A stretch of 64,000 nucleotides of DNA from Negaprion brevirostris (Eukaryota), in contig JARDVH010000084.1 of NCBI GenBank assembly GCA_030324005.1, positions 44,020,262 through 44,084,261 of the forward strand. The letters run 5' to 3'. A program made the position numbers and the translations under genes. Positions 21,056-47,215 of the stretch are shown here, piece by piece (the stretch's first letter is position 1; the number at the start of each line of letters is the position of its first letter). The notes beneath the pieces are model-generated. The model was not told the DNA's origin. It searched no databases and worked only from the letters and a program-made list of their open reading frames with translations.

Positions 21056-21060
21056 TGTGT

Positions 21061-23287: not shown

Positions 23288-23452
23288 TGTGGAGATGCGA
23301 GTGTTGGACTGGGGTAGACAAGATGAGAGGTCACATGACACAAGATGAGAGGTTACACGACACAAAGTCCTGACAGAGGAGCAGTGCTCCAAAAGCTTGT
23401 GATTTCAAATAAGTCTGTTGGACTATAACCTAGTGTTGTGTGACCTCTCAAT
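23288..23452. mobile_element. PLE-derived fold-back element (family A), internally deleted, with hammerhead remnant
   Basis: tgtggagatgcgagtgttggactgggg...cctgacagaggagcagtgctccaaaagcttgtg...gttggactataacctagtgttgtg. TSD ttagctgtga at 23278-23287 and 23453-23462. Confidence 0.7.
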
Positions 23453-23734
23453 TTAGCTGTGACTCTTATTTTTGAAGATGGAAACCAAGTTTTGATGTTT
23501 TCAACCCAGTGAGACTTCCTTTACATTTCTTGACTCCCTCATGATGATGTATTTACTTATTTATAGTACTGGGCTACTGTTGATGTTGGATTTGCTAACT
23601 ATTGTAGTGGTAAGGCATATGCAAGAAAATTGACTCCAATAGATTCCCTTTAGATTAAAGCTGAAGTTCACACAGATCAATTCAAGCATTTGATTTTAAT
23701 CTCCTGCTTCACAGTTGGGAATCAAAACACTTTT

Positions 23735-23850
23735 GTGGAAAACCTCCATCCTCATCAGCGGCTGGGATTCTCCAGCGCCACTGCAGTGAATGGAATTTTG
23801 CTGAGTGCCAGATTCTACGAGCTCACTGGCAGCGGGATCGGAGAATCCAT
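23735..23850 (-). mobile_element. Short MITE (family of 32899 and 47714)
   Basis: gctgggattctccagcgccactgcagtgaatggaattttgctgagtgccagattct is the reverse complement of the core of 32899-33030. Confidence 0.6.
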
Positions 23851-23894
23851 GGCACTGTGAGGCAGTAATGCTAATCATTGTGCCACCATTGTAC

Positions 23895-24715
23895 AAGAAC
23901 TGGCGCAGGGGTTTAGCTATTGGTGAGATGGATAACTGATATCAAACCACAAGGATCTGTGTTGGGCCCCCAATTATTCCTCATTTATATAAATGACATT
24001 GATGACTATATGGGAGATAGGATTAATAAGACCTCTGGAGGTGGAAGAGCATGTTAGTAAGGGTGGTGAAAAGGGCATATGGGACACTTGCCTTTATCAA
24101 TCGAGGCATAGATCACAAAAGCAGGGAAGTCATGTTGGAGTTGTATAGAAATTTCAGGAGGCCACAGCTAGAGTACTGTGTGCAGTTCTGGTCACCACAT
24201 TATGGGACGAACATGATTGTATTGAAGTGGGTGCAGAGGAGATTCATCAGGGTGCTGCCTGGAATGGAATATTTAAGTAATGAAGAGAGGTTGAGTAGGC
24301 TTGGTGTTGTTTTCGTTGGAGCAGAAAAGAATAAGGGGCGACCTGAGTGAGGTGTTCAAGATTATGAGAACATGGACAGAGTCGATAAGGAGCAGCTGTT
24401 CCCTCAGCTGAAGGGTCAGTCACGAGGGGCAATAGGTTCAAGCTGGTGGCAGGAGGTTTAGAGGGGCTGTGAGGAAAAATTTTTTTATCCACAGGGTGGT
24501 GATGATCGGAAATACGCTGTCTGGGAGGGTGGTAGAGGCAGGTTGCCTCGCATCCTTTTAAAAAAAGTATCTGGATGAGCACTTGGCACATCATAACAAT
24601 CAGGGCTGTGGAGCAAGTGCTGGCGGATGGGATTAGGTGGGAGTTGAGATGTTTCTAATCTGTCGGTGCGGACCCGATGGGCCGAAGCGCCTCTTCTATG
24701 CTCTATGATTCCATG
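23895..24715 (+). mobile_element. CR1 LINE 3' fragment
   Basis: ORF 24051-24350 KRAYGTLAFINRGIDHKSREVMLELYRNFRRPQLEYCVQFWSPHY. Tail gatgggccgaagcgcctcttctatgctctatgattccatg. Confidence 0.9.
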
Positions 24716-24739
24716 CTAGGGACACTGTTTAAACAGAGA

Positions 24740-25565
24740 TATGATGTGGAGATGCCGGCGTTGGACTGGGGTAAACACAGTAAATGTCTCACAACACCAG
24801 GTTAAAGTCCAACCAGTTGTTGCAAATGTGAGGTTATCCACTTTGGTAGAAATAGTAGTAGGAGGGATTATTATTTAAAGGGTGAAAAGCTGCAGCATGT
24901 TACAATGCAGAGGGACCTGGGGGTCCTTGTGCACGAATCACAAAAACCCAGTCTGCAGGTGCAGCAGGTGATCAAGAAGGCGNNNNNNNNNNNNNNNNNN
25001 NNNNNNNNNNNNNNNNNNNNNNNNNNNNNNNNNNNNNNNNNNNNNNNNNNNNNNNNNNNNNNNNNNNNNNNNNNNNNNNNNNCTCAGAAAGGACAGTAGG
25101 ACTAGAGGGCACAGCCTCAAGATAAAGGGGGGGCAGTTTAGAACAGAGTTGAGGAGGAATTTCTTCACTCAAAGGGTGGTGAATCTCTGGAATTCTCTGC
25201 CCATTGAATTGGCGGAGGCTACCTCGTTGAATATATTTAAGTCACGGGTAGATTTCTGATAGACAAGGGGATTAAGGGTTATGGGCGAAAGTGGGAAAAT
25301 GGAACTGAGCCACTTCAGATCAGCCATGATCTTATTGAATGGCTGGGCAGACTCGAAGGGCTGGGTGGCCTACTCCTGCTCCTATTTCTTATGTTCTTAT
25401 GTTCAGTTTATTTGATAATAAACCCACAAACTTTCGGAAACACTGTTCCTTTGTCAGGAAGGTTCCACACACCTGACAAAGGAACAGTGTTTCCAAAAGC
25501 GTGTGGGTTTATTATCTAATAAACTGGTTGGACTTTAACCTGGTGTTGTGAGACTTTTTACTGTG
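24740..25565. mobile_element. PLE-derived fold-back element (family A) with two inverted hammerhead-like motifs, interrupted by a CR1
   Basis: Left arm 24740-24818 plus 25409-25458, right arm 25472-25565 (its reverse complement). TSD taaacagaga at 24730-24739 and 25566-25575. Confidence 0.8.
24819..25403 (+). mobile_element. 5'-truncated CR1 LINE nested in the family A element
   Basis: KCEVIHFGR..MQRDLGVLVHESQK..QVQQVIKKA and a (ttcttatg)n tail. Flanked by cagtt at 24814-24818 and 25404-25408. Confidence 0.88.
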
Positions 25566-26346
25566 TAAACAGAGAAAGCCAATTAACACAAATGACATGT
25601 GAGGGTTGCTTGAGTATGCGAGAAAGCTTTCCTTTCTGAAACACTTCACTGAGATTTACTATTGATTATCTATAGGAGGAAAACATAGAAAATATTCAAT
25701 ATTTCTATGTATTATGTGACTTTATATATAAAATATGATATGCTTGCCATGGGAATGATTGCAGCTCTGGGTATAAATTTGCATTGATGACTAATTATTT
25801 TCAATGAAACAAGTCAAGAAAAACAAGGCTTGTTTCCAGCCTACCTTCGATATCTTCACGCTGAATACCAGAAAATCTCAGAAATTGTTCACAAGTTGAT
25901 GAGGATGTCATTATCACATCGCTGATGCTGCCCTTTCATATTGCACAGTGGGCAACTAAATCTTGGAATCCATTGTTTGATTGCACACTGCGGAACTTGT
26001 TTGGCCAAGGATTTCCTGGAGACTGAAAATAATGGCAGTAATCCATGTTTAAATTATTGACTTTATAATAATTAAATAAAGGGCGCATTTAATGCTGATT
26101 TCCCCAAGGGAGCAGGGAAAGAGGTCAGTGGGGATTAGGGAGAGAGGCAAAGTTTCAAGTTCCTGACATCAGGATAGATGCGCTGAAATCTCCCACCAGT
26201 GGGTTACAAGTGGGATGCAGTGTCAACGGCAACAGCAGAGAGGTAATTATAATAGATTTGCATATGAATACTCATCAAGGTTTTGTAATTAAATGTTACC
26301 TTTGCAATTAAGTTGAAGGAGCATAGGAAATACACAATTTTGCTTT

Positions 26347-26812
26347 CATAAGAAATAGGAGCAGGAGTAGGCCATGTAGCCCTTTGAGCCTGCCCCGCCA
26401 TTCAATAAGATCATGGCTGATCTNNNNNNNNNNNNNNNNNNNNNNNNNNNNNNNNNNNNNNNNNNNNNNNNNNNNNNNNNNNNNNNNNNNNNNNNNNNNN
26501 NNNNNNNNNNNNNNNNNNNNNNNACCCACCAGCGTCTTCCTCCCTTTGCTGTTCCTAATCTCCACCCACAACGATTCCACTTTCTGCTCTTTGGTTCCTA
26601 AATCATCCCTTGCTACCACCCTGATGCTATCCTTAATCAGCAGAGCTACACCCCCCTCTTTTTCCTCCCGCCTATCCTTCCTAAACACTTGATACCCCTG
26701 GACATTCAGCTCCCTGTCCCTGTCACCTTGCAGCCACGTCTCTGTAATGGCCACCAGATCATATCCATTAGTGCTGATGTGCGCCACCAGCTCATCCACT
26801 TTATTTTCACAA
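26347..26812 (-). mobile_element. CR1 LINE with gap-collapsed interior: 3' tail (26347-26423) and APE endonuclease N-terminus (26524-26812)
   Basis: ORF 26308-26988 includes NKVDELVAHISTNGYDLVAITETWLQGD..NVQGYQVFRKDR..GGVALLIKD..VESLWVEIRNSKGRKTLVG. Confidence 0.88.
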
Positions 26813-27289
26813 CTACTTAAAGCTGGATGGAGCAAGTCAAGACTGAAGCTGAGTGAGTTGGGACGAGATGACATTTCAGAGAATTTGTTGGAATAGGGGA
26901 GATTGGAAATCATCACAGGACAGATCAAGGGTGACCAAGGGGAGCTCAAGGGTGACTGAAGGAAGGGCAAGGATGTGTGAAAGGTCAAGGGTCACTGAGA
27001 GCAAAATCAGGGTATAGTTGATGAAGATCAGAATGAGTGCCATTCGTCCGTAGGCCTAAGGTTTTGCTTGAGGGTCAGATCAACAGTGGAGGGCACACCT
27101 TTGCTTGGATGCTGCCCTTTGTTCAATTTCTGAAAGAAAAATATGTCTCATTTACCCAGAGCAGCTGGAGCCTGGAGTGGAGGAGGAACAGGAATATAGA
27201 AGATGGAAGATGGTATTGGGTTAGTGCTAAAGATTAAGAAGGAGCAGCATCAGATTCTGAGGCTGGTCAAGATGGGGCAACCAGAGGTC

Positions 27290-27590
27290 AATGTGATGAC
27301 AAGCAGTGGTGTGTCCTCAAGTATTCTGAACTGTCTGCAGAAAACTGATAGCCAGAGTCAAAGACAGCTGAAGATAGGGAAACAGTCACGGAGCAGTGGA
27401 TTCTCCTTCAGGATGATCTGCAGCCCCTTGGACCAGGAGGGAATCCAATGCATTAGAAGTCACTGCAGCATTGAACTTCTATGGCAGCAGCTCCTTCCAG
27501 GGTTCCACAGGAGACATGTGTGGCACCTCCCAGACAGCTGCATATTGCTGCATCATAAAGGTCACCAATGCACTATTTCAAAGGGCTGTG
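27290..27590 (+). pseudogene. PIF/Harbinger transposase (HARBI1-like) N-terminal remnant
   Basis: 27459-27587 translates VTAALNFYGSSSFQGSTGDMCGTSQTAAYCCIIKVTNALFQRA, comparable to HARBI1 [43 protein letters not shown]. Preceded by a frameshifted LLQDDLQPLGPGGNPM. Not shown in the ORF track frame. Confidence 0.75.
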
Positions 27591-27600
27591 CAGACCCAGA

Positions 27601-27680
27601 GAGGTGGAGATGCTGGCGTTGGACTGGGATAAACACAGTAAGAAGTCTCACAACACCAGGTTAAAGTCCAACAGGTTTAT
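27601..27680. mobile_element. Family A PLE-derived element, left arm, running into a gap
   Basis: gtggagatgctggcgttggactgggataaacacagtaagaagtctcacaacaccaggttaaagtccaacaggtttat. Confidence 0.8.
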
Positions 27681-27865
27681 NNNNNNNNNNNNNNNNNNNN
27701 NNNNNNNNNNNNNNNNNNNNNNNNNNNNNNNNNNNNNNNNNNNNNNNNNNNNNNNNNNNNNNNNNNNNNNNNNNNNNNNNAAGAGTTGTGGGGTGGGGGG
27801 GGGTGGGGTCGAAGTGAAACCGGCAAATGGAATGCTCCATGTAAATAAACAGGCTTAACTGGGAT

Positions 27866-28795
27866 CAATAAGACCATAAGACCGAAAGGCATAGGAACAG
27901 AATTAGGCTACTCGGCCCATCGAACCTGCTCCGCCATTTATTCATGGCTGAAATGATTTTGTTTTCCTTCCCATCCTCTTGCCTTTTTCCCATTACCCCT
28001 GATCCCCTTCCTAACCAAGGAACTATCTATCTCTGTCTTAAAGACACTTAATGACCGGCCCCCTACAGGCTTCTGCAGCAAAGAGTTACACGTATTCGCC
28101 ACTTTACGGCTGAATAAATTTCTCCTCATCTCTGTTTTAAAGGGTCATACTTTTAGCCTGTGTTTGTGCCCTGTGATTCTAGCTTTTCCTGCTAGTGGAA
28201 ATACGCTCCTCAATTCCACACGATCCAGCCTTGCAGAATCCTGAAAGTTTCAATCAGATGTCCTAATCCTCCTACACTCCAAAGAATACAGACCTAGAAT
28301 CCTCAACCGTTCCTTATACGACAAACTTTTCATTCCAGGGATCATTCTTGTGAACCTGCTTTGGACCCTTTCCAAAGCCAGAAAATCCTTCCTTAGATAT
28401 GGGGCCCAAAACTGCTCACAGTACTTCAGATGGGATCTGACCAGAGCCCTATGCACCCTCAAAAGTACATCCGTGCCCTTGCATTCCAGCCCTCTCAACA
28501 TAAATGCTAACATTGCATTTGCCTTCCTAACTGCCAACTGAAGGCCCACGTTAACCTTAGGAGTGTCTTGAACAATGGCTTCCAACTCCCTTTGTGTTTC
28601 TGATTTCCGAAGTATTTTCCCATTTAGGACATAGTCTATGCCTTAATTCCCCCTTCCAAAGTGCAAAACCTCACACTTTTCGACATTACATTCCATCTAC
28701 CATTTCTTTGCCCAATCTCCTAAACTGTCCAGCTGCTCCTGCAGCCGCTCTGCTTCCTCAATATGACCTGTCCCTCTGCATATATTTGCATCCGC
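27866..28795 (-). mobile_element. CR1 LINE 3' fragment
   Basis: ORFs 28250-28585 (KANAMLAFMLRGLE..ALVRSHLKYCEQFWAPYLRKD) and 27938-28129 (MRRNLFSRKVAN), plus the (ataagacc)n tail. Confidence 0.9.
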
Positions 28796-28814
28796 ATGGG
28801 TATTAATAGCCGTA

Positions 28815-29455
28815 ACTTTTTATTTGGAATAAGTAAGACGAGTTCATGGAGAAATTGTTGAGAGATTGAACATGCGGCCTTTTGCAATGTTCTAGAGAAA
28901 TCAAACACAAACTAGAGGGCCAGCGGCTTATCTTCCTATTGGGCACGTTACAGCCTTCTGGACTCAACATTGTGTTCAAAAACTCCAGAGCATAAATTCG
29001 TTGCTCTACGTTCACGCCACGTCCATTTATCTAATTTCACATTATTTCAACTTTTCCATCTGTTTTTATCATCCTTCTTTCTCCTCTCCATTTTTGAAAT
29101 TTGCATTCCAGCTCTGTTTTTTGCCGCCTTCCAGCGCCCCACATTTCTCAGGCTGTCCTTGAACAATCTGCACCTCTGTTTTCTCACTCATATATTCTGA
29201 CCACATAATTGACACGTTTGTAGCACCTTCACAGCCTTCTGTATCCTCGTTTACATTCACTTTGTCCCATTGCACCCTCACCCTACTTGAATAAATCTCC
29301 GCTGATCCTTTTTGCTGTCAGCTGTGGTGGCGAGCAATCAAGACTTGAAACATTGGCACTATTCTAGCCCCATTAATGCTGTCAGACCTGCTATTTTTTT
29401 TTTCTAGAATGTGCTGTTTCAGGTTCAGATTCCAGCATTCGCAGTTTTTTTTGTT
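28815..29455 (+). mobile_element. Penelope-like element 3' end: GIY-YIG endonuclease C-terminus, pyrimidine-rich 3' region and family B terminal repeat
   Basis: 28876-28995 translates GLLQCSREIKHKLEGQRLIFLLGTLQPSGLNIVFKNSRA*, matching the PLE endonuclease tail (E..WI..L.T..P.GLN). 29330-29455 resembles family B (gacttgaaacatt...atgctgtcagacctgct...cagattccagcattcgcag). Confidence 0.72.
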
Positions 29456-31409
29456 AAAATCTCAAACAATGTCAGTACAGGTTCGAGGTCCCCTTGGATA
29501 GCCCATGATTCCAAGCCATTGGTGTGTATAAAAAATATTGTTTCTTTTCCAGGGACATGGGAATAAGATATTTTTGCCTGTTTCTGTAAAGTATTGCGAA
29601 AGCGTTGTGGCATCACTGATGCTGTATTTTGAATTAAGGATTAGACCTGAACAATACTTTCCCACTCAGGCTGACGTTAAAAAAAAAACACATACACTTC
29701 ACTGAAGACCAGAAAGAGTGCCCTCCTGGAAGGTAAATCCAAATTTTATTCCAACAAATGTGCTAGTCAAACACTTTTTTTAATACAGAAAAAAATCCCA
29801 GAATTTCAAAGCCGAAAAATAGCTCTGTTATACTTTGCACTCACATTGGAATGAGTGGTTTGATTTCTTTTAATCTCTGGTAAAACTTTTCCAAATATGT
29901 ACATACAGAATCTGCAAAATGCATTCTGAACACAATATACACTGTACCAATAAAATAGTGTTAATACATAAATAAAATTGGAAGGATTAGACTTGCATGT
30001 GCATTTCAACAAACAAGTTTGTCAACTTCACTATAGTCTGTGAAACTAAAAACTGTAAAATCTTGTAAAGTTTTTTTCCTTTTTGCACATAAAGCAGCTT
30101 TCAAGTCCAATAAAATATTTTTGACTGCAGAAGCAGATGTTTACATTCACAATCTAAATGATTAAAATTTATTTAAATGTCATTGACAGTTATTTACAAA
30201 ATACTGCAGTTAGAGACTAAATTTTACTTTTTGTTCTGTTATGAATTTTGACACATACAAAAGAGTGACAGTTTTTCTTGTACATCAACAAAGCTTTACA
30301 TACGGGTTCACTTTTACAATGCAACCTGTTCTGTAATACCTAATTTAGTGCTATTCATGATGTGACCCATGTGTTATCTGCCTCCTATCTGTCATCCTGT
30401 ATCCATGATGCACAACAGATATGCTGCCTCATACACCTTAGGTGCTCCATTCCTGACCTGTCCACCTATGGGATTTCGCCCAAGCTAGAATTCAGTACTA
30501 CTCCCTTCCCTTACCTTCTTACTCCTCATGTACGTTAAGAGAACGTATTTCTATGAATTGACCCCAGTAATATTTTCCACTCTTACTGCATTCTTCAGTA
30601 ACCAATCATGGCTTGACTTAAAGTTTGGAATCCAGCACGACTGTTACGGGCATAGATCATATCCCATTACGTTACTCAAAACAGCCTTGAAGCGATATAT
30701 TAGTGGGAATTTTTATTTTCAATTAGAAGTTGATGATTAGCAATTACAGTATTAAAAGTGTAAGAAAGAATTCTACATCAGAGTAAAATTGGGAATGTGA
30801 AATAACAAAAGATGCTGTTGGTCGTAAGAGCTTTGAATAACAGAAGCAACTGAGATGCTTGAAATCATACTTCTGTTTCAGCACACCTTGAAAAGCAAAA
30901 AAAGAATAGTTTGAGCCAATTAAGACCATTTTGAAACCATCATATTTTTGGAAATTTGGAGAATAAATTTCAATTTTAGTACAATTTTAACCTGTGCATT
31001 TTGGTGACATGGATTATATTACTGATGTGTTTGTTTGCTATTGGTTATGCATAAGCAATTGTACCTACAGTGAATTTCCATAAAGGCAATAAATTGTATC
31101 AAGTATTGATATACATGCAGTTACAATAATAGACTTAAAAGCGAGGCAGTAGATTTAAGCCTATTTTAAATTAGCAAAATAAAAAACTGTAAATACTTGC
31201 TTTATTAAAAACTGTAGCTGGGTACTGAATAAAGATGATGTTCGGATGTGAATTAATCACCATTGCCGTAATGACAGAAATCTGAAGCTGCGGGTGCTTC
31301 ATACATTGAAGGAAATATTGCACACTAGGTTTGGTCTGTGGAAAAACTAATTCTTAATTATGGGGATTGATTTATTTTCATCCTTTAACAAACAAAATAT
31401 AACACAGAG

Positions 31410-31575
31410 TGACTCAAGGAGGTCTTAAGGCAGATGGCCAAAAACTTGGTCAGTGAGGTACTTTTGAAGGAGTGTCTTAAAAGAGGAAAGAGAAGTCAAG
31501 AGACAGAGAAGATTTGGAGAGGGAATTCCAAGGCTCAGGGTCCAGACAGTGGAAGGAACAGCCACCGATAACAGA
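31410..31575 (-). mobile_element. L2 LINE C-terminal fragment
   Basis: ORF 31425-31625 ends TSLSSFKTLLQKYLTDQVFGHL, like the L2 ending SLSSFKTLLKTYLF.QAF. Confidence 0.7.
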
Positions 31576-32898
31576 ACAAAGAAAATCCTATTCTGCTGCC
31601 TGGTGTATTTAAAATGTTGTTTCAAGTTTACAGTCTCTTATCCGATTAATTACCTTATCTAGTTTGCTTTGAGATATCCCTTATGTTGAAGAGCCCCAGC
31701 TCAGTGAATCATCCAAAAAGCTCTTCATTCCCGCTCTGGAGATTTTCCATGTTGCTATTCTCTGTTCAATTGTTGAAGGAAAAATGGGTCTCATCCACTA
31801 CCTTTAAGTCATGGATGGCTTCCTGATATCATGACAGCCAAAGATTTTTCAGTTTGTCCAGCTTTACCTCAACAGGACACTACAGCTTTAATACAATCGG
31901 CAATTTGAACTCAATTGCTTTGGCAATAGAACACAATGTGACTAATACAATGGCATGTTGAGTAAAGCATTCTGTATATTGTTCTTTAATACAAATTAAC
32001 AGCTTGGCACCCATTCGCTCCTGTAAAATCCAGCCAATAGAGACAGAAAGTGGTACATTTTACAAAATTAACTTCAGAATATATCATTCAATACTAGCCA
32101 TTGACTAGTGATGACATTTATTTAGTATGTGTATGACTGTGTGGATGCGAATGGAAGTCAAACCAATCAATAGATCGATGAGGTCTTCAGTTTCAGGTTT
32201 CTGTTGCTCATCTCAGTGTCCTTTCAAGTTAGATTGTCAAACTTGATCAGCGTGAAAAAAAGTTTAGGGCTTGTAATTTCTGAGTTTTCTTCCGGTTTGA
32301 ATTTGTTTGTTGATATTAAGCGACATCCTGTCATGCAATCCCATAAACATTCTTGATCTGTCATAAATTGAAGGAGCATGTGCACAGTGATAGATGGGTG
32401 CAGAAGCCAAAACCCTCATCTTGGCTCTTGTTGTGTGGCAGTTTATCATTCAGCTAGGATATGTTACAATGCTTTTATATGTGAGGATCTTTGACAATTG
32501 AGTGTAGTGACAATTTCAAGCATGTGTTACAGTATTAACATACATAGAACCATATGCCTACAGGTACGCATAGTCAGCAATGGAAAAGCTATATGACTGC
32601 ATGAGAGCTTTGCATGCACTAGCGGTAAATATGTAATATGTCGCCTAGAAAAGCGCTGTGTCATGTATTTGCTGGCGACGCACCTCGAAAATGGAATTGT
32701 CGTGTAGGGAGAACCTAACTCTACGCAAAATCTGAGTGGGTAGGAACTCAGGTGGCCCAAGTTACTTTGCCTCCATCGTGCTATTTTTAACTTTAAGTGA
32801 CACTTCGGGACAGGTTGTCTTATGAAGAAAGAGTGAGCAGTCTGGCACAAACTCTTTAAACTTTAATAGAATGAGAGCTGATTTAATTGAAACAGATA

Positions 32899-36682: not shown

Positions 36683-36815
36683 TTCTGAAGAAGTCATAAC
36701 ATAAGATGCAAAACATTAACTCTGTTTCTGTCTCCACAGATACTTCCAGACCGGCTGAGTTTTTCCAGCATTTTCTGGTTTTAATTCTGATTTCCAGCTT
36801 CCAGAGTATGTTGCT
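36683..36815 (+). mobile_element. PLE terminal repeat (family B-related), decayed hammerhead
   Basis: ctgaagaagtcata...aaaacattaactctgtttctgtctccacagatacttccagaccggctgagtttttccagcattttctg. Confidence 0.65.
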
Positions 36816-36961
36816 TTTATCTTACCATGTCTTTCTGTGTTTGACCACGTATCTATCTGTGCAGTCATTTGAGTATCTGTTTATCATTTCAATCTGTGTA
36901 ATAATGATTATTTAATACTTCCCAGGCACCTAGAATGTCACTTCACTGGCATAAATGTGAA

Positions 36962-37060
36962 AGACCAAAAGAGAAAATGCTGGAAAATCTCTGCAGGTCT
37001 GGCAGCATCTGTAAGGAGAGAAAAGAGTTGATATTTCAAGTCCAGATGGCCCTTTGTTAA
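36962..37060 (-). mobile_element. PLE terminal repeat (family B)
   Basis: Closely matches 1835-1931: aaatgctggaaaatctctgcaggtctggcagcatctgtaaggagagaaaagagttgatatttcaagtccagatggccctttgt. Confidence 0.72.
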
Positions 37061-37544
37061 ATGCGAAAGAGTTTGTTATCCACCTGTGAATTACACAAAA
37101 TCTGCTGAGAAATACCAAATACAGCTAAATTCTCAGTAATTATTCTTTCCTAAACTATAAGGTGTGTAACTCAGTTGCAATCCTCCTACCACTGATCCAG
37201 TTGAAATGATCTAACTCAGCCAGGAACTGCCACTGAGATCTTTCTATTCTGATAGCTCAGATATGGAGACGCTACCTTTGACAATGGTTGGATATTTATA
37301 CTTCAAAACATCAGATTTCATGACATCACAGCTCTAGACAACTCACAAAGCAAAGTAGAAACTAACAGGGATAATGTTTCCTTTGGGAAACTGAAAGGTT
37401 TGGATGAAATGCCAGATTTACACATCAACCAGAATTACTCTCCAGTGACTATAACTGAAAGTAAAATCAGATAGATGCAAGACCTAATCCCTTTAAGTTA
37501 GGTTAGGTTAAAATTGCCAATACTGCTGATTGCGAAAACATTCA

Positions 37545-38550
37545 TAAAGTTGAGGGAGTGTCAGCACTGCTACCTTCCTGTAGCTGTCTGATACAGACAC
37601 CATGTCTAAACTCCACAAATATCCCCATACTCAATGATGAAGGAGCCCAGCACATCAATCCAAAAGATAAGGCTGAAGCATTCACAGGAATCATCAGCCA
37701 GAAGTGCTGAATAGATGATACATCTCGGCCTCCTCTGGAGGTCCCCAAAAGTGGTTTTTGCTACCAAATAAACCTGTTGGACTTTAACTGGTGTTGTGAG
37801 ACTTCTTACTGAGTTGTCCCCAGCATCACAGATGTAAGTCTTCAGCCAATTTGATTCTCTCCATATGATATCAAGAAATGGTTGGAGGTACAGGATACTG
37901 CAAAGGCTATGAACCCTGACAATATTCTAACAATAGTACTGAAGACATGCTCCAGAATTTCCCTAACTCCTAGCCAAGTTGTTCCAGTACAGCTACATCA
38001 CTGACACCTACCCAGCAATGTGGAAGATTGCCCAGTATGTCCTGTACACAAGAAGCAGGACAAATCCGACCCAGGCAATTACTGCCTCATCAGTCTACTC
38101 TCAATGATCAGAAAAGTGAACTCCGGAGGTGAGTGACTGCCCTGACGAGACAGTATTTGACTGAGTGTGGCATTAAAGAGCTGTAACAAAACTGGAGTCA
38201 AGAGAAGTCGGGAAAACCCTCCTCTAGTTGGAGTCTTACGTAGCACAAGAATGATGAATGGAGGTCTATTTTCTCAGCTACAACACATCACTGTAGGAGT
38301 TCCTTCAGCTGCTTCGTCAATGACCTTCCATTCATATAAGGTCAGAAGTAGGAATGGTTGCAGATGATTGCACAATGTTCGACACCATTTGTAACTCCTC
38401 AGATATTGAAGCCGTCCATGTCCAAATGCAGAAAGACCTGACAATATCTAGGCTTGGGGCGTAAGTGACAGGTAATATACATGCCACATAAGTGCCACGC
38501 AATGACCATCTCTAACAAGGGGGAATTTAACCATTGCCCCTTGACTTAAT
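37545..38550 (+). mobile_element. CR1-superfamily LINE (distinct from HER1 type), decayed RT region
   Basis: Translates in pieces STNIPILNDEGAQHI..KDKAEAF..SQKC, DTAKAMNPDNI..IVLKT, LAKLFQYSY, WKIAQ.CPVHKKQDKSDPGNYCLISLLS. Confidence 0.75.
37748..37815 (+). mobile_element. Family A PLE-derived single-arm insertion inside a LINE
   Basis: gtggtttttgctaccaaataaacctgttggactttaactggtgttgtgagacttcttactgag. TSD gtcccca at 37741-37747 and 37816-37822. Confidence 0.75.
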
Positions 38551-38628
38551 GTCTGTGTTGATAGATGTGATCTTCATGGAGATCCTCTCCACTTTGAGCT
38601 GACAGTTTGTGGTGTTGGTGGTAGCCAC

Positions 38629-38858
38629 AATGTGGAGATACTGGCATTGGACTGGGATAGGCTCAGTAAGAATTCTCACAACACCAGGTTAAAGTCCAAC
38701 AGGTTTATTTGGACTCACAAGCTTTCAGAGTGCTGTTTCTAAGGAAGAGCTCCTAAACAGCGCTCCGAAAGCTCGTGATTCCAAACAAACCAGTTGGACT
38801 TTAACTTGGCATTGTGAGACTTCTTACTGAGCCCACCCTAGTCCAGCATCTCCATATC
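38629..38858. mobile_element. Family A PLE-derived complete palindrome (arms about 105 bp)
   Basis: atgtggagatactggcattggactgggataggctcagtaagaa...ctttcagagtgctgttt | aaacagcgctccgaaagctcgtg...ttcttactgagcccaccctagtccagcatctccatat. The arms are mutual reverse complements. Confidence 0.82.
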
Positions 38859-38965
38859 NNNNNNNNNNNNNNNNNNNNNNNNNNNNNNNGTCTACAAACA
38901 GTAGCAGCTGAGTAAGTAGGTGAAATAAGAAGGAAAAATTAACCCAGTTCATTAATTTAAAACAT

Positions 38966-39050
38966 GTTTGTCACTCCAAAGATTCTGCCAGATCTGCTGA
39001 GTATTTCCAACATAATCTGTTTTTGTATTAGATTTCGTATATCCACAATT
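38966..39050 (+). mobile_element. Family B PLE repeat fragment
   Basis: ctccaaagattctgccagatctgctgagtatttccaacataatctgtttttgtattagattt. Confidence 0.5.
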
Positions 39051-39074
39051 TATTTTGTAATTACAAAGCAGAGG

Positions 39075-39410
39075 TTCAATATAGGGAATAGGAAAAATTT
39101 TGAATTTTTAATCAAAGAGGAAATTACTAAATATCTAGATAAAGAGAAATTAATTTGAGCTGCCAACACAGATTTTTGAAAGAAAGATTGGTTTAGAAAC
39201 ATAGTTCTTTGAAGACAAGACAGACGTTATAGATGGGGAACCGTAATGGATGTGCATGTGAACTTTTAAAAAGCTTTTGACAAGGTCTCGCACAGGGAAT
39301 TATTGAAGAAGATCAAGAGACATTGAATTAACAGAAAGTTAGCAAATTGGATTAAAACTGGTTTGAAAAGATGAAACAGAGTTGAGGAGTTAAGGGTAAT
39401 TCCTCAGAGC
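39075..39410 (+). mobile_element. Degenerate CR1 RT fragment
   Basis: aacttttaaaaagcttttgacaaggtctcgcacagg is a decayed DFQKAFDKVPHR motif. Confidence 0.65.
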
Positions 39411-40617
39411 ATGACGCTGCAACAAATGCAGAAATAATTCTGTTCTGATTTCAGAACTGGTTTCATCACCTTGATGTTGCAAAATTAAAAATAAACAGCT
39501 TGAAATATTGTATTTCTCCGATTTCCTTTTTGATATCTTCATTAACATTTCCCCCAATTTCCTTTAATTTTTATCATTTGAGTTTTACCTTTCAGATTGG
39601 TTGTAACTAAATCCAAATTTTTCTTTCTAATTCTTGGGTAATTACATATCCATTTTCCAGTGCTACCACTGTAATCCATTATTTATTCCAACAGTTGGAG
39701 TTGCTTCATCTGAAATTCCCTCCAGTGAAACAGCAAGTCCAAAGTTTTATCTTCCAACCAATCATGGATAAGAACCCTAGAAACTGTCACAGAAGGAACA
39801 GAACCAATCTTTAAAAACTGGAATACTCCTCCCAATTCCACTCTAGTGATGAAGACAGTTGCCAGCTTCCACTTTGCCCCCTGCTAATAGTCTCTGCCTT
39901 CAAATTCCAGGATCTGCCTGAGAATAATAGCTCAAAATCTGTTATCAATTCTTCAGTGCACTACCTAGTCATTTCAAACATCCCTTCTCAATTTAACATT
40001 TTTTTAAAGGAGACATGAGGCCATATGAGCTTTGGGCCTAGCTGTACTTGTGATTGCTAGGCGAGCATGTTTACTTAACAGTCATACTTTGACACATAAC
40101 TGTAATATATAGAAGTGAAGAAAACATGTACTTTTTTGTCAGAGAAATGGGTGTAGCAGCCATTGCCAGGTAACTTGCATTGACTAGGAGGTGGAAAGGG
40201 AAAGAGTATCTCAGGTTATTCAAAGTATATGGCTTGAAGTCACGTTCTCAGCTATTTTGGCAATTCAGCTGTTACACATGGCTTAAGAGCCCCTGCAGTA
40301 AAATGAAGAAAATTAACTAGGGTTCTTTCCCCTGATTGCTACCTAATGACTCCTAGAAGGTTATATGATTGTGGATGTGAAGACACAGCTTGCTAACTCA
40401 CTGAGACACATAGGTTGCCACATGCAGGATGTTTATTAGTGTAAGATGTTGGATGGTGCACAGCAATCATGAAAGTATCTCGGGGAAGAGGCATTACCAT
40501 CAGGGGAGGAGTATGGAACAATAGCTTGGTCAAAGAAGGAGGAAGTAAATTGTGTAGTTTAATGCCAAACATGTGCTCTGGGACAAATTTGTAATGTTGT
40601 CACCCACTTCTATATAA

Positions 40618-40947
40618 GGGCAGCATGCTGACACAATGGTTAGCACTGCCATTGCACAGTGCCAGAAATCCAGGTTCGATTTATGGCTTGGTCACTGTCT
40701 GTGTGGAGTTAGCACATTCTCCCTGTGTCTGCATGTATTTCCTCCAGGTGCTCCAGTTTCCTCCCACAATCCAAAGGTGTGTGGGCTAGGTGGATTGACC
40801 GCGCTAAATTGTCCCTTAGTGTCAGAGGGATTAGCTATGGTAAATGTATGGGGTTGTGGGGATAGGGCCTAGGTAAGATTGTGGTCAGTGCAGATTCGAT
40901 GGGCCAAATAGCCTCCTTGTGCACTGGAGGATTCTATGACTCTATGA
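40618..40947 (+). mobile_element. tRNA-derived V-SINE (HE1), full length, CR1/HER1-type tail B
   Basis: Head gggcagcatgctgacacaatggttagcactgcc...ccaggttcgat, V-domain, tail gcagattcgatgggccaaatagcctccttgtgcactggaggattctatgactctatga (similar to the CR1 tail at about 24660-24715). Confidence 0.88.
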
Positions 40948-41218
40948 ATTCTGCAGCTTTTCATGTTTGGTACAGAATCAGATCTAAATTAATGTCATTT
41001 TTCAGTTTCAGTACCTTTTTCTAAAATATAATGAGTGACTTTAACTGTCAACTGGTTTCCTTTGGCAATCTGCTAATGCCGACTAACTTCCTAACAGTCA
41101 GTGCAATATGAAAGAGTGACAGTTTTAACTAGTGGATCCCATTAACCTGCCACTGATCTATTTCCCATCAAGAATTAGTCAGACGTGGGTGGGAGGATAT
41201 GCTGCTGGCCTCCCAAAA

Positions 41219-41563
41219 TCCATGATGTGGAGATGCCGGCGTTGGACTGGGGTAAACACAGTAAGAAGTCTCACAACACCAGGTTAAAGTCCAACANNNN
41301 NNNNNNNNNNNNNNNNNNNNNNNNNNNNNNNNNNNNNNNNNNNNNNNNNNNNNNNNNNNNNNNNNNNNNNNNNNNNNNNNNNNNNNNNNNNNNNNNCACC
41401 AGGTTAAAGTCCAACAGGTTTATTTGTAGCAAATGCCACTAGCTTTCGGAACTAGCTGTTTCTTCGTCAGGTGGGTGACGAAGGAACAGCCAGTTCTGGA
41501 AGCTAGTGGCGTTTGCTAAAAATAAACCTGTTGGACTTTAACCTGGTATTGTGAGACTTCTTA
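41219..41563. mobile_element. Family A PLE-derived fold-back element with an intact hammerhead core on the minus strand
   Basis: TSD ctcccaaaa at 41210-41218 and 41564-41572. Inverted arms meet at about 41473. Includes an artefactual 100-N gap. Confidence 0.82.
41435..41474 (-). ncRNA. Putative minimal type I hammerhead ribozyme motif
   Basis: Minus strand ccac-CTGACGA-a-gaaac-agcta-gttcc-GAAA-gc-TA-gtgg. Stem I ccac/gtgg, stem II 4 of 5 paired, CUA triplet, palindromic AGCU in place of stem III. Confidence 0.55.
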
Positions 41564-41831
41564 CTCCCAAAAACCAGCCAGTTAGAGCTTCCTCCACGAT
41601 TCTCAGGTAAGTGTAAAGAAGGGGGTGTAATGACAATGATGAGAAAGTCTGGGGCAGGGGAGGTCTAAACTTTTCATGTGAGCATGGAGGAGTGCTCCTG
41701 TTCCTGGCCATCACCACAACATTGGAAATTGCCCTTCGCAAATAGAAGTTAAAATCACTATTGATTGTTATTAGACCCCAATTAACACATGTAAATTAGC
41801 AGCAATCTGTCATTGGTTGGGCATCTTCTAT

Positions 41832-42210
41832 GAACATACAAATTAGGAGCAGGAATAGGCTATTTAGCCCTTTGTGCCAGCTCTGCCATTCAATAAGATC
41901 ATGGCTGATTGTAGCCTCAATTCCACGTTTCGTTGCCTCCCTCCGATAACTTCTGACTCTTTTGTTACTTCAGAACATCTGCCTTCAAAATATTCAATGA
42001 CCCCGCCTCTGTTGGGGAGGAGAGTTCACAATCCTCTGAGAAAAAAAGATTTTTTCTCATCTCCAAGTTAACTTGACCAAGGCTAGCTTAGGGGTTTATA
42101 AAAGAAGAGTGACATGGACAAGTTGGGCCGAAGGGCCTGTTTCCATGCTGTAAACCTCTGACTCTAATTGGGAGACCCCTTATTTCAATAAATATAATTC
42201 TAGTCTCTCC
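41832..42210 (-). mobile_element. CR1 3' end with a small opposite-strand CR1 tail nested at about 42085-42165
   Basis: aattaggagcaggaataggctatttagccc...ccattcaataagatcatggctgat. The nested piece is ggacaagttgggccgaagggcctgtttccatgctgtaaacctctgactcta. Confidence 0.72.
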
Positions 42211-42552
42211 CTTACGTAGACATATCTAACTGTAACCAGGCACTTTGCCAGTAAGTAGCCCAGGGCACTTTAACTGCTCAATTGTTCTGTTCTCATCCAG
42301 TGAGTATTAAAATTCCCTCCATTATTTTCGTTGTTGTGTGTGAATTGCATTGCTTCTATTTGGGGAGTTTGGATCCAGAAGGTTTTGATTAAAAAGATTG
42401 CTCTAGGTTATTCATATTTTGTGGAAAGCCTGATGAAAGTTTAATATTTATTGGCTGCTTAATCCAGTGCTTATCAGCTTCAGTTAAAATGTTTATAGGT
42501 TAATAACACAATAAATGTTATCTAACTATGTTCCCTCTCTGTTTTCTTTTAG

Positions 42553-42678
42553 TTCCGCCAAAAATTATTGACATCTCTACTGGCTCTGTCGTGAATGAAT
42601 TCAGCAATGTCACTCTTTTTTGTCTAGCAAGTGGAAAACCAGAGCCCACCATCACTTGGAAGCACATATCCCCATCAG
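42553..42678 (+). CDS. NEGR1: Internal coding exon (126 bp, phase 1-1) of an IgLON-family neural cell adhesion gene, most similar to NEGR1 exon 3 (first half of Ig domain 2)
   Basis: Polypyrimidine tract plus AG (ttccctctctgttttcttttag, ending 42552) and donor G|gtaaga at 42679. Translation (V)[41 protein letters not shown] aligns by eye with human NEGR1 [42 protein letters not shown]. The HISPS ending favours NEGR1 over LSAMP. The Met-started ORF 42528-42746 is an intron read-through. Confidence 0.88.
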
Positions 42679-43594
42679 GTAAGAGAAGCTTAATATATCC
42701 TTTAGTTAAATGTATTCTTCAATTAAAATCTGTCAACATTAGTTAATACCGAATATAATTAGTTACAACTAGGAGGTACTTACTTCTTTGCCAATATGGA
42801 AGGTCAAGTTCTGTAGTCTATTAGGCTAATAGAGAAATTGTTAATAAGATGCATTTTCCTTTAACTCAGGTCAACCTTTCAGACTCCACCACTACAGTTC
42901 TGGGTTTAACATAATCTGTTACCCTTAGGGGATTTAAACCATTGAGTGTACAGCTTTAAAAAATTGTATGCTAAATGATAACATGCTAAATGGAAATCAC
43001 GTTTCCATAAGAAAACATGCAGTAGAGGCAGATTATGTTCCTGCCCTGTAATCTTTATATAAAAAATTTATTAGCTGCTTGAACCGAACTTGAACCTCTT
43101 TAACTTGTTCTACTTACTTCCCATGCACCACTTCTCACCTTCTGATCACCTCCTGATCCTCCATCTTGCCACTTGTCTCTCCTGCTCCCTCTTCCAAACC
43201 CTTATTTCTTCCCACTTGCTGCCTTGCTCACTACCCTGTGAGGAGAGGGGCGGAAAGAGTGAGGAAGTAAGCGAAAGATGTGGCAAATGGGGCAAGGAGC
43301 CAGAAGAGAGCAATTGGTGAGTGGGAGATGGAAGTGACGGTAAGTTTTAAAAACATGACAGCACGTGCAGTATCAACATGGTTCCTGGCACATGCTTAGT
43401 AACCTCTCTAAAATGAAATGGAAGCAACTCTAGTCAGTAACTTTCCTAATTTACAAACCACACTAAAATAAAAATGTGCACTTTAACCGGGAGATACCTG
43501 TATATACAATTACACAACAGGGCTGTATATTGTATTTGGTTACTGACTGCCCATTATCCCAAATTTTCCAACCAGGATGGCCCATCTGGGCTAG

Positions 43595-43880
43595 GGGGAG
43601 GTGGTGGCATAGTGGACTTGTAATGCAGAAACCCAAAGTAATGTATCAGGGTCCCAGGTTCAAATCCCACCACTGCAGATGGTGAAATTTAAGTTCAATA
43701 AAAATCTGGAATTGAAAGTCTAAAGATGACCAGGAAACCATTGCCCATTGTTGTGAAAACCCATCTGGTTCACGAATGTTCTTTAGGGAAGGAAATCTGC
43801 CATCTTCACCTGGTCTGACCTACATGTGACTCCAGATCCACAGTGATGTTGTTGACTCATAATTGCCCCTTCAAGGACAA
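43595..43880 (+). mobile_element. tRNA-like SINE (family distinct from HE1)
   Basis: ggaggtggtggcatagtgg (A box) ... ccaggttcaaatccc (B box) ... gcagatggtgaaattt...aaacccatctggttcac...agggaaggaaatctgcc. Related fragments at about 17455-17520, 17952-18075 and 50680-50800. Confidence 0.7.
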
Positions 43881-44814
43881 TTCTTTCTACCAATAAGAAC
43901 ATCTCTTTTCAAGCTGAATGATAACACAGAATTAATTCTTCCAGATAAATTACATCTTTGAACAGATGCGCACGTTGCTTTACTATGAGCTTTAGAAGTT
44001 TCATGACCAGCAAGATATCTTCCAACATTTCTCCAGTTAAAGTACCTATTGATGAATGCCTATTTCCATTTACCAGGGTAAGGGAATAATTTTGCAATAC
44101 AATATTGCAAACATAACAGTAGACTGCCTCAGAGTTTTCCAAAAGAACTCAACCAAATTCTAATTCCTGTAATCCTATTTCTTTCCATTCGCAGAAAATG
44201 GTGCTTGTGAAGGCTCCTAACTGGCTTTCAGCCTGCAACATCAAACCCTTCTCTCAAATTTTCCATAATTGCCAGCTTTCTGGTTTATTGAGTGCAAAAT
44301 ACTCTATCATACCCAGGGAAACGGGTGTTGGCTATAAGGCAATATCTTCTGGGTAGCTTTCTTAATTTACTTCAACAGAAGAATCAACAATGTCTCATAG
44401 CCCCATTGTCATTTTAGAGATCACTTCTTGTTTAACTGTTTCAGACAATGTGCGATGGATTGGCAAATCTAAGTCATCTAATAATTCACCCATTTTATGG
44501 ATGAGGATGAATGTGCAGTTTGTGCATTGTTAAATACTTTGAACTTTTAAAGTAAAATGAAAACTGTATTTTTGCCTCGCTTTGTCCTCTTGCCTTGCCT
44601 TCAGTTTTTTGTGTTTTTGACAGCCTGATTAATGTCGCCTCATATCACATAAGCAACTGACCTTGATTTTAGACAGCTACAGAAATGTTTGAAAGAGTAG
44701 GCATTATTTTTGCACATCAATCCCACATTTTTATCAGGATCAAGCTTTGCAAAAATTAATCATTTAACTATGAAGCTGTGATTCAAACAAACTGGATTTC
44801 AAACAACACTCACT

Positions 44815-45612
44815 CACAATGATGAGACAGAATACAGAAAAGAGATAGAGAATCTGGTGAACTGGTGTGACGATAATGATCTCTCCCTCAATGTCAACAA
44901 ATGAAGGAGATAGCCATCGACTTCTGGAAGTGTATGGAGAACATGCCCCTGTCTACATCGATGGGGACAAAGTAGAAGTGGTTGGGAGCTTCAAGTTTTT
45001 AGGTGTCCTGATCATCAGCCACCTGTCCTGATCCCCCCATACTGATGCTATAGTTAAGAAATCCCATCAATGCCTCTACTTGCTCAGAAGACTGAGAAAA
45101 TTTGACATGTCAGCTATGACTTTCACCAGCTTTTACAGGTGCATCATAGAAAACATTCCTTTTGGTTATATCACAGCTTGAAATGGCTCTTGCTCTGTCC
45201 AAGACTGCAAGAAACTACAAAGAATCATGAACAAAGCCCAGTCCATCATTCAAACCAGTCTTCCACCCACTGACACTGTCAACACTTCCAGCTGCCTGGG
45301 AAAAGCAGCCAGCATAATTAAGCACACCATGCACCCAGACATTCTCTTGTCCACCTTCTTCCATTGGAAAAAAGATTCAAAGGTCTGAGGACACGCACCA
45401 ACTGACTCAAAAACTGCTTCTTTCCTGTTGCCATCAGACTTTTGAATAAACCTACCTCGCTTTAAATTGATCTTTCTGTATACCCTAGCTGTAACACTAC
45501 ATTCCGCACTTTCTCCTTCTCTATATACAGTATACTTTGTCTGTATAGCAAGCAAGAAACAATACTGATCATTGTATACCAATACATGTGACAATAATAG
45601 ATCAAATCAAAT
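44815..45612 (+). mobile_element. Rex1/Babar-type LINE 3' fragment
   Basis: NDETEYRKEIENLVNWCDDNDLSLNVNK...KKSHQCLYLLRRLRKF...FYRCIIENIL. Ends with an (atcaa)n tail. Homologous to 6301-7020 and 4883-5270. Confidence 0.88.
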
Positions 45613-47116
45613 GAGAATCTACTTTTCTCCTGCCCACTTCCTTCACAAACCCTCCTTCTCTGCAAGTCTGCAACCTAATCCGCTTGCACACTCTCCTCCA
45701 CCGATACCTTCACAATTTTCCAACCCCACCCCCCCCAACTCCATCCCCTCACACTCTTCCATTCTCACCTTCTCACTCACCTGCGGAGATCAAGGGAGCC
45801 TGCCTCACTCACCATGGCCACCGCAACTCATCATGCCTCAGGCCATTGTCATGCACCTGGGTTCACTCCTTTGCTAGGTGATATCCTCATGGCTTGATTC
45901 AATGGTCCTGCCTCGCTATTATTGACCTGCATCTGCTAGTGTCAGTGCCCTTCACAAATTTACTTGCCTGCTCTGCACCTTATGGCTTGATTCACAAAAC
46001 TCAGCATTCTCTCCTTCTCTCATCGTAGTCTCATGCACGTGCCTCAGGTTAACCATTTGTCACCTGTTTTCCTGCTCATTCAGACTCAGCAGTTGGAGTC
46101 CGATTTTGTTCTGCATTTGCTGCTCAATGCAGATTGGATGCCCAGTGCACTAGCCTGGTAAAGAGCCTCCCTCACCCCCATTGGTTGGTGCTCTGTTTTC
46201 TTTGTAAATCCGACTCTATCGGTCAACTAGCATTGGAGGGGAACAGGGAGGGAAGAAGACCTCCTGTGTCAACATACTTCTGGCCTTGACCAAGTTAGCC
46301 ATTAACAGGTCCAGGCAGCGGGCATTTGAGGTGGTCACAACACAAACGTCTACTATGCTTACATTCATGGCCTTAGAGAGGGAGCACACAGTGTTTACCG
46401 ATACAATTCAGGCCTCTGCAACCAGTGGGCACTGCAGGGCCTGGGATGCATCATCACTCTGAGGAATGATACTTTGGATTAGTTAGTTAAGTTTCCTTTT
46501 TGACGTTTTGTTTTAACTACAGTGTCCCACCAGGGGCTATCACCCTTCTTAATTTGTTGTATTAATTGATTTTTGCTTTCTCAAAAAGAATACGGCCCCA
46601 TTCGCTGCCGGTGACTCTAGAGAGGGAGCATGCGGGGTCCGCTCATAAGCTTCAGGCCTTCCATAACCAATGGGTGCTGTGGGTGCTGTGGAGGTGGGGG
46701 TGGGGATTCATCACCTCCCCTCCCCCACCCCCACCAGAATTTTAATCTGATATACTTTGAGTTTCTTCTGAACTTTTGACTTATTGTTGCACAAGGGGCC
46801 ATCACCCCCTCTCATTTATTGATTATTGTTTAATTTATTGATTTTTTTTTTGTCTGTTGATGGCCACCTGGGCTAGGCCCAGGAGCATGCCTATGAGGAG
46901 CTGGTGGATCCCTCCACCCCCCTCTGCAATGGGAGCCCAAAGATCGAGAGCATGGTATTGCTTTCTTATTCTGGATTCCCTATCAAAGGAAATAATTCCT
47001 CTGGATCCACCCTATTGAATCTTCCACTGTGCTAAATACCTCGATTAGATCATCTCTAATCTTTCTAAATTCGAAGGCATACAAGTCAAATGTATGCAAC
47101 CTGGCCTCATAATTTA

Positions 47117-47215
47117 AGTAAGAAGTCTCACAACGCCAGGTTAAAGTCCAACAGGTTTATTTGGTAGTACAAGCCACTAGCTTTCGGAGCACTACCCCTT
47201 CATCAGGTGAGTCTA
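47117..47215 (-). mobile_element. Family A PLE-derived single-arm insertion
   Basis: agtaagaagtctcacaacgccaggttaaagtccaacaggtttatttggtagtacaagccactagctttcggagcactaccccttcatcaggtga. Imperfect TSD cctcataatttaa / cctcaaaattaaa. Confidence 0.8.
47174..47210 (-). ncRNA. Putative minimal type I hammerhead ribozyme motif (best-preserved copy)
   Basis: Minus strand tcac-CTGATGA-a-ggggt-agt-gctcc-GAAA-gc-TA-gtgg. Canonical core, stem I ucac/gugg, stem II fully paired with G-U wobbles, CUA triplet. Confidence 0.6.

Follow-up and report, generated by a model that had tools for sequence, protein, structure and literature searches.

Seven short repeats, four of them with inverted arms, lie within a 64,000-nt stretch of Negaprion brevirostris DNA (contig JARDVH010000084.1, positions 44,020,262 to 44,084,261; hereafter, the window). 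A first-pass annotation had read them as a non-autonomous or heavily truncated Penelope-like element (PLE), or a retrozyme-like RNA element, in an elasmobranch; the host is indeed a shark. Here, we ask what these repeats are, how their two-armed insertions formed, and whether their hammerhead motifs could act in the pre-mRNA of a host gene.

Seven insertions of a single unit

The unit was confirmed at all seven positions where copies had been listed (23288, 24740, 27601, 37748, 38629, 41219 and 47117). The insertions (c1 to c7) and their parts are as follows.

c1, 23286..23449: two arms head to head
c1 minus arm, 23286-23366: tail present, no hammerhead, 22-nt internal duplication
c1 plus arm, 23369-23449: hammerhead with G8, A9 and G12 changed, no tail
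c2, 24741..25566: two-armed, 8-nt filler between the arms
c2 minus arm, 24741-24818 and 25409-25458: tail present, G8 changed
c2 plus arm, 25467-25566: no full tail; G8, G12 and U16.1 changed
CR1-like insertion, 24819..25403: later than c2 and inside it, contains a 100-N gap
c3, 27604..27680, minus strand: tail-bearing arm, remainder lost in the gap 27681-27780
c4, 37748..37815, plus strand: single arm without CUGANGA
c5, 38545..38858: minus arm 38545-38739, plus arm 38756-38858
c6, 41221..41565: minus arm with a tail ending in ATG (41223-41221)
c6 plus arm, 41476-41565: no tail, C3 lost, A13 changed
c7, 47117..47212, minus strand: single arm without tail

The unit runs in the order hammerhead, AATAAA, stem, an optional tail of ~36 nt, ATG and ORF. 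Inverted, 5′-truncated arms stand head to head in c1, c2, c5 and c6, and arms are 85-92% identical within one insertion and 61-77% identical between insertions. Two extents were corrected. The copy at 24740 is two-armed, reaches from 24741 to 25566, and is split by a piece that we take to be CR1 from a translated motif and its 3′ repeat; CAGTT is duplicated around this piece (24814-24818 and 25404-25408). The copy at 38629 has a left extension to 38545, into the ORF of the element, which had been missed; both of its arms begin inside stem II and lack CUGANGA, and its right end lies in a 31-N gap. N gaps hide the far ends of the copies at 27601 and 38629. The c6 insertion is a single palindrome interrupted by a 100-N gap; the 20-nt ends on either side of this gap overlap. 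Seven insertions in 60.8 kb correspond to a density of ~115 per Mb (95% range 46-237), likely an overestimate because the window was picked for carrying them.

Target-site duplications of variable length

Variable-length target duplications, previously taken to point to retrotransposition, were recovered at 7-12 bp in five of the seven insertions, the other two being hidden by assembly gaps.

c1, 23278-23287 and 23453-23462: exact 10 bp
c2, 24730-24739 and 25566-25575: exact 10 bp
c4, 37741-37747 and 37816-37822: exact 7 bp, ambiguous because both sides resemble element sequence
c6, 41210-41218 and 41564-41572: exact 9 bp
c7, 47105-47116 and 47216-47227: 10 of 12 bp matching

With insertion edges placed by eye, random edge pairs gave duplications of at least 7 bp in 1.6%, at least 9 bp in 0.13% and at least 10 bp in 0.06% of 20,000 trials. 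For c7, the exact test gave just 3 bp, and a 10/12 duplication had a chance of 1.0% (5,000 trials). Long inverted arms between flanking duplications are also what a MITE-type DNA transposon with terminal inverted repeats would leave. However, the duplications vary in length (7, 9, 10, 10 and 12 bp), the ends are unequal, the centres are variable, and single arms have a duplication of their own. Variable duplication length, together with the link to a reverse transcriptase (RT) ORF described below, refutes a MITE, to which we give practically no credence.

An indirect link to an RT and GIY-YIG ORF

Coding sequence of the element is preserved in c5.

38545..38628, minus strand: ORF of the element, codons 1 to 28, with the start codon changed to GTG (38628-38626)

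This ORF start and the eight preceding tail codons share 67% identity over 36 aa with three shark gene models. In a search of 1.84e9 proteins, P0003 (38530-38688, minus strand) matched P0005 and P0006 from whale shark and P0007 from Mustelus (E 6e-5 to 5e-4); the best-scoring hit (P0004) and the fifth hit were unrelated repeat proteins, and we set P0004 and P0008 aside as noise from repeat proteins. At its C-terminus, P0007 consists of translated hammerhead-region sequence, matching 23363-23425. P0005 and P0006 overlap P0011 (643 aa, Heptranchias) at 72-76%, and models tile from the c5 ORF start through P0005, P0006 and P0031 to P0011, with RVT_1 and a GIY-YIG-type C-terminus. Among relatives of P0006 residues 295-394, PF26215 was present in 39 of 41 and RVT_1 in 14 of 41, and all 22 species-named relatives were sharks. 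A CX4CX2C linker lies ahead of a GIY-YIG-type motif in 17 of 40 P0006 relatives, the others being mostly partial; GIY-YIG was scored in one of eight relatives, below the cut-off (20.2 versus 22.6 bits). The connection to RT is indirect, running through this single copy and through spliced gene models of ab initio type from other sharks rather than through contiguous DNA.

Protein searches found no longer relatives of P0003 and P0006, Pfam gave no match for P0005 or P0006, and PDB and NCBIfam gave nothing useful for P0006. Pfam hits in the 425 window ORFs of at least 52 aa comprised LINE RT/endonuclease, one integrase fragment and an Ig exon, with none to GIY-YIG, and the full element ORF is absent from the window. 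A 25-nt motif of the pseudo-LTR (pLTR) had no match in viral, metagenome and prokaryote contigs.

Because the c5 ORF matches models tiling into proteins with RT, CX4CX2C linker and GIY-YIG, the Neptune clade is indicated. Canonical EN+ Neptune PLEs likewise encode RT, then a Zn-finger-like linker, then GIY-YIG, and they share with the shark copies a pLTR with an adjacent inverted 5′-truncated copy, an optional tail at one end (30-40 bp) and short duplications (8-10 bp) (PMC3846280; PMC8557442). By contrast, the shark copies are stumps of 50-220 nt without an internal ORF between pLTRs. In vertebrates, only Neptune and Poseidon PLEs are reported (10.64898/2026.07.22.740005). The Neptune assignment is likely, and rests on the linker; the CX2-5CxxC linker between RT and EN is a Neptune feature common to Nematis (PMC8557442). 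We are confident that the stumps are 5′-truncated dead copies of the hammerhead-bearing pLTR of a shark PLE, likely Neptune, and likely inserted by its own RT and GIY-YIG nuclease.

The ORF link upholds the earlier reading as a heavily truncated PLE and argues against a separate non-autonomous or retrozyme family. A dedicated short PLE derivative, with an RNA of 100-140 nt that begins ~6 nt upstream of the core and depends on mobilisation in trans, would suit the high local density and the lack of any arm extending far upstream of the hammerhead; relative to C3, the longest arms end at −6 (c6), −6 to −9 (c7), −6 to −14 (c2) and −1 (c1). However, run-off at the start of a full-length mRNA would yield equal ends, at least three sequence variants behave alike, no promoter of its own was found, and c5 extends 84 nt into the ORF, so that its template was an ORF-bearing RNA. 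We thus judge a short derivative improbable. Far more remote is a non-LTR retrozyme replicating via circular RNA. Retrozymes share a type I hammerhead and a PLE pLTR origin with the stumps (Li, Clavereau, Pollet 2026 preprint), and a single sampled chondrichthyan has them (bioRxiv 10.64898/2026.07.22.740005). Their definition, however, requires units repeated in tandem, with at least two complete hammerheads in succession (10.64898/2026.07.22.740005), whereas none of the seven insertions is tandem, their arms lie on opposite strands, and the stumps possess a tail, an inversion and an ORF start; the retrozyme-like label is not supported.

A minimal hammerhead carried as a passenger

The proposal of a minimal type I hammerhead in a PLE pLTR was borne out: complete cores are present in two of the seven insertions, c7 and the minus arm of c6, and the motif fits the published PLE consensus.

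47175..47209, minus strand: c7, complete type I minimal hammerhead, with cleavage predicted between 47178 and 47177
41437..41473, minus strand: c6 minimal hammerhead, complete core, predicted cut between 41440 and 41439

The c7 hammerhead comprises a 3-bp stem I, CUGAUGA, a bulged A, a 4-bp stem II, GAAA and the AGCU palindrome; that of c6 has one A-C mismatch in stem II and is locked within the palindrome. In the remaining five insertions the core is truncated or mutated at C3, G8, A9, G12, A13 or U16.1. Metazoan PLE minimal hammerheads have the same consensus of short helix I, CUGANGAH, a G-C closing pair of helix II, GAAA, a palindromic junction and UH, and occur mostly as single motifs or as opposite-strand pairs 100-700 bp apart (PMC4209133). 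In that study, the painted-turtle hammerhead shares the G-C-U-H junction and precedes an AAUAAA signal; the study lists no chondrichthyan in Table S1 or Figure S3.

A strict hammerhead descriptor matched one site in the window, 47175-47209(−), compared with 0.055 per window over 200 dinucleotide shuffles; with a two-base junction it matched none of 200 such shuffles. The bare CUGANGA..GAAA pattern was not enriched in the window (5 observed, 4.82 expected), and the eight Rfam matches at E≤10 included no hammerhead family, being chance hairpin matches only. The predicted fold of the c7 hammerhead was no better than those of shuffles (z 0.48), and in a 96-nt context an alternative predicted fold beat it. 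The tail stem (GUUGGACU/AGUCCAAC) is present and folds no better than shuffles (z −0.1). Stem covariation was weak: a single pair had changes in its two partners, an equally high value was reached by 31 of 500 shuffles, and the arms are not independent. The hammerhead is a passenger, which among the stumps has decayed, lies antisense to the host gene or is trapped in a hairpin.

The c4 arm begins at the hammerhead cut site or just before it. We considered whether c4 might have been copied from a product of ribozyme cleavage, but a 4-nt deletion after GAAA explains it equally well. A cap-derived G at 5′ junctions was rejected (present in one of three), and the numbers were too small to support selection against sense-strand ribozymes.

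Formation of two-armed insertions

The insertions had been described as fold-back repeats. Their shape agrees with this term, but c1 argues against copying of one arm from the other, since each of its arms holds sequence that is missing from its partner: a tail and no hammerhead in the minus arm, a hammerhead and no tail in the plus arm. The 3′ ends of 11 arms fall within about 5 nt of a short end (five), include the tail (five, one of which runs into a gap) or reach into the ORF (one). The tail measures 33-39 nt in four arms whose ends are visible and is absent in five. Where both outer ends are visible, it is confined to one arm (three of three insertions). This one-arm tail and the mutually exclusive sequence of c1 favour two separate priming events over snap-back, with the twin-priming inference based on three insertions.

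Self-priming of the second arm, in which the first cDNA (or an antisense template) of the same element folds back and is copied onto itself, has been proposed for head-to-head PLE junctions (PMC3846280). It fits c6, which is compatible with snap-back as well: all of the plus arm is contained in the minus arm, and the two overlap by 1 nt at the centre; arms of an insertion also share private changes. However, arm copying cannot supply sequence that the template arm lacks, so c1 counts against it, and in c2 the tailed arm is the shorter at the centre. We regard self-priming as rather unlikely.

Under twin priming, the element protein would nick both DNA strands 7-12 nt apart, and reverse transcription would start inside the element RNA, at the pLTR/ORF junction, from either of two preferred sites, before the tail or at the tail end by the ATG. 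Where both nicks primed, usually one per site, they would give two short cDNAs of opposite direction; synthesis of each would end close to the hammerhead's 5′ edge, and microhomology or filler would join them into a palindrome in which a single arm bears the tail. Earlier work has described the tail and the inverted copy, as well as priming on both strands and a pair of internal start sites (PMC3846280, PMC8557442, PMC11167929). In PAc, an Anolis element, two internal start sites bound a tail at the pLTR/ORF junction and both strands are cut and extended (PMC11167929), as proposed for the stumps. However, PAc is a Poseidon element, whereas the family of the stumps has a Neptune/Nematis linker; its ORF opens within the hammerhead and itself contains the start sites, whereas the shark unit has its ATG ~90 nt past the cut site and its tail ends at the ATG.

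It is possible, though we put this forward tentatively, that the stumps record the PLE reaction in fossil form and at high copy number, with arms primed from two nicked strands at two fixed internal RNA sites, and with 5′ ends piling up at the RNA start before the hammerhead and, in a minority, at the ribozyme cut site (c4). If so, the positions of arm ends throughout a shark genome would reveal by what route head-to-head PLE insertions arise, and also whether cleavage by the PLE hammerhead takes place in vivo. At ~115 per Mb, one shark genome would offer enough copies for such end-mapping.

Host gene and pre-mRNA

One exon of a host gene lies among the insertions.

42553..42678, plus strand: 126-nt exon of the IgLON family, AG/GT bounded, best match NEGR1 (E 1e-16)

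The host is likely a shark nerve-cell adhesion gene, NEGR1-like, in keeping with the proposed neural-gene location. The insertions do not share a single intron, as had been supposed: six lie upstream of this exon and one downstream, and they thus span two introns. PLEs are reported to be expanded in whale shark introns (10.1101/443036). Self-cleaving motifs had been suggested for the pre-mRNA. However, the two complete cores lie on the minus strand, antisense to the plus-strand gene, and every plus-strand arm has a hammerhead core that is absent or broken, which leaves pre-mRNA self-cleavage unsupported. The long hairpins also suggested for this transcript are supported by predicted folding (z −8 to −23).

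The repeats are real but ordinary, a known kind of jumping gene with an architecture already published (Arkhipova 2013, Cervera 2014, Craig 2021, Frangieh 2024). The family itself adds little, and its value is as material for studying the insertion mechanism. For annotation, the palindromes break short-read assemblies (three of the seven insertions are at N gaps) and score as false microRNA precursors, and the repeats enter gene models as false exons.

Seven insertions of one unit

By repeat search and self-BLAST of the window, the unit was found at all seven places listed in the first-pass annotation. One copy of this hammerhead-bearing pseudo-LTR (pLTR) is termed an arm, and the optional ~36 nt leading to an ATG and ORF a tail.

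23286..23449: c1, two arms, 5′ end to 5′ end
24741..25566: c2, two arms, 5′ end to 5′ end
24819-25403: CR1-like piece within c2, its halves on either side of a gap pointing in opposite directions
27604..27680: c3, arm cut off by a gap
37748..37815: c4, single arm
38545..38858: c5, two arms, 5′ end to 5′ end
41221..41565: c6, two arms, 5′ end to 5′ end
47117..47212: c7, single arm

An additional arm pair at 25404-25566 proved to be part of the 24740 copy (c2), split by the later CR1-like piece; CAGTT is duplicated around the split. Variable target-site duplications stood for five of seven insertions (exact 10, 10, 7, and 9 bp, and 10 of 12 matched; chance rate per duplication 0.06% to 1.6%), the c4 repeat being ambiguous and the c3 and c5 ends lying in N gaps. 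A MITE was rejected because the duplications are not of fixed length. The retrozyme-like reading was likewise abandoned, as c1-c7 lack the tandem units that serve as criterion in 10.64898/2026.07.22.740005.

Hammerhead motif

A strict hammerhead descriptor matched one site in the window (47175-47209, minus strand, in c7); in 200 shuffled windows it averaged 0.055 per window, and its two-base junction form 0. The bare core pattern was not enriched in the window, and hammerhead was absent from the eight Rfam matches. Core positions follow hammerhead numbering. Stem II is 96% paired across six arms, with one pair altered on both sides, but 31 of 500 shuffles reach an equal score, and the arms are not independent. 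The complete core is kept in two of seven insertions (c7 and the c6 minus arm); the predicted fold of the c7 monomer is no better than shuffles, and an alternative fold is favored in context. The motif agrees with the minimal hammerhead consensus of Penelope-like elements (PLEs) as drawn in Figure S3 of PMC4209133.

A second dispersed family has a decayed minimal-hammerhead-like layout (1825-1930 and 36956-37061, minus; 36711-36776 and 38980-39029, plus) and is likely the pLTR of another PLE.

Element identity

Downstream (3′) of the hammerhead lie AATAAA, a short stem, and then the optional tail, whose last codon is ATG in c6, GTG in c5, and ATA in c2. The c5 frame stays open beyond this codon to 38545. 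Searched against 1.84 billion proteins, the c5 peptide gave five matches at E<=0.001. Three are gene models from sharks, matching at 67% over 36 aa; the other two are repeat proteins and were dropped. Two of the shark models read on through RT-like sequence, and a Heptranchias protein of 643 aa overlaps both at 72-76%. Residues 295-394 of P0006, a whale shark model, retrieved 41 proteins out of 97 candidates, with PF26215 (HTH_animal) in 39 and RVT_1 in 14; all 22 species-named relatives are from sharks. CX4CX2C precedes a GIY-YIG-type motif (two cysteines within the motif) in 17 of 40 relatives, and Pfam GIY-YIG scored in one of eight tested, under cut-off. According to PMC8557442, such a linker marks Neptune and Nematis. 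A search among proteins for longer relatives of the ORF peptide or P0006 found none. The proposed heavily truncated PLE is upheld at the ORF start, which matches shark models with RT-like sequence; the link to RT/GIY-YIG is indirect, since the spliced gene models on which it relies belong to other species.

The three shark models (P0005, P0006, and P0007 from Mustelus) start matching at a codon split by CAG in the tail (38665-38651, minus; same place in the c1, c2, c3, and c6 tails), and ahead of this CAG come a branch-like CTTAC and pyrimidines. A predicted splice acceptor, ~23 nt short of the ATG that opens the ORF, is thus used by gene predictors. If the acceptor is real, the element's 5′ UTR could lose both hammerhead and AATAAA to an intron ending there.

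Collectively, the first-pass annotation classed the family rightly in the main: c1-c7 are real, ordinary PLE insertions. On the tested features they work like, and belong to, canonical PLEs with a GIY-YIG nuclease (EN+). A literature search, with Repbase/Dfam outside its scope, turned up no publication describing the family or PLE hammerheads in sharks; the family may be listed in the supplements of 10.64898/2026.07.22.740005, a study that included a single chondrichthyan.

Priming mechanism

The 3′ ends of 11 arms comprise five clustered to within ~5 nt of a single position, five tailed (one into a gap), and one running into the ORF, and the tail is limited to one arm in all three insertions showing both outer ends. 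According to PMC11167929, the protein of an Anolis PLE nicks both DNA strands, extends each of them, and starts at two internal sites flanking the tail; the hammerhead there is protein-dependent and dispensable for insertion in vitro. We infer that both nicks probably prime separately, mostly one per site, and that the two resulting cDNAs would then be joined to each other. Alternatively, the second arm might arise by snap-back, as proposed in PMC3846280, which we consider unlikely. Arms are 85-92% alike within an insertion versus 61-77% between insertions; palindrome centers vary among insertions, and in c1 each arm carries sequence absent from the other. The arm 5′ ends may mark the RNA start: the longest arms of c1, c2, c6, and c7 stop 1 to 14 nt before core position C3, six insertions being too few to settle the point.

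A 22-nt tandem duplication (23318-23365) at the center-facing end of c1's tailed arm looks as if it came from polymerase stutter shortly after the second start site.

Host gene and other repeats

Among 425 ORFs of at least 52 aa, one is a host exon (42553-42678, plus) that matches NEGR1 best (E 1e-16; neurotrimin 6e-13), bearing out the neural-gene setting. PLEs have been reported within whale shark introns (10.1101/443036). Since the exon is on the plus strand, the two complete hammerheads both face against the pre-mRNA as antisense copies. Of the five plus-strand arms, those of c1, c2, and c6 are broken and those of c4 and c5 lack CUGANGA. The suggestion of self-cleaving motifs in the pre-mRNA is therefore not supported. 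That of long hairpins is supported: whichever strand is folded, the palindromes give them (z -7.9 to -23).

The antisense of the hammerhead 5′ side, at 47204-47212 (plus) and 41468-41476 (plus), reads as a consensus splice donor in the host sense (CAG/GTGAGT at c7). This predicted donor would be a likelier path to a host effect than self-cleavage.

A decayed integrase core (rve; 51383-51619, plus; E 4.6e-6, below cut-off) is the leftover of an LTR element, and LINE reverse transcriptase and endonuclease fragments lie at 6591-7094, 16940-17260, and 26524-26991 (all minus). A 179-nt repeat, presumably a shark HE1-type SINE, occurs three times (12558-12736, 21045-21223, 52557-52735; 78-82% alike). 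An 88-nt inverted pair (2829-2916 and 3552-3639, 635 nt apart) is 82% complementary and has no other copy in the window.
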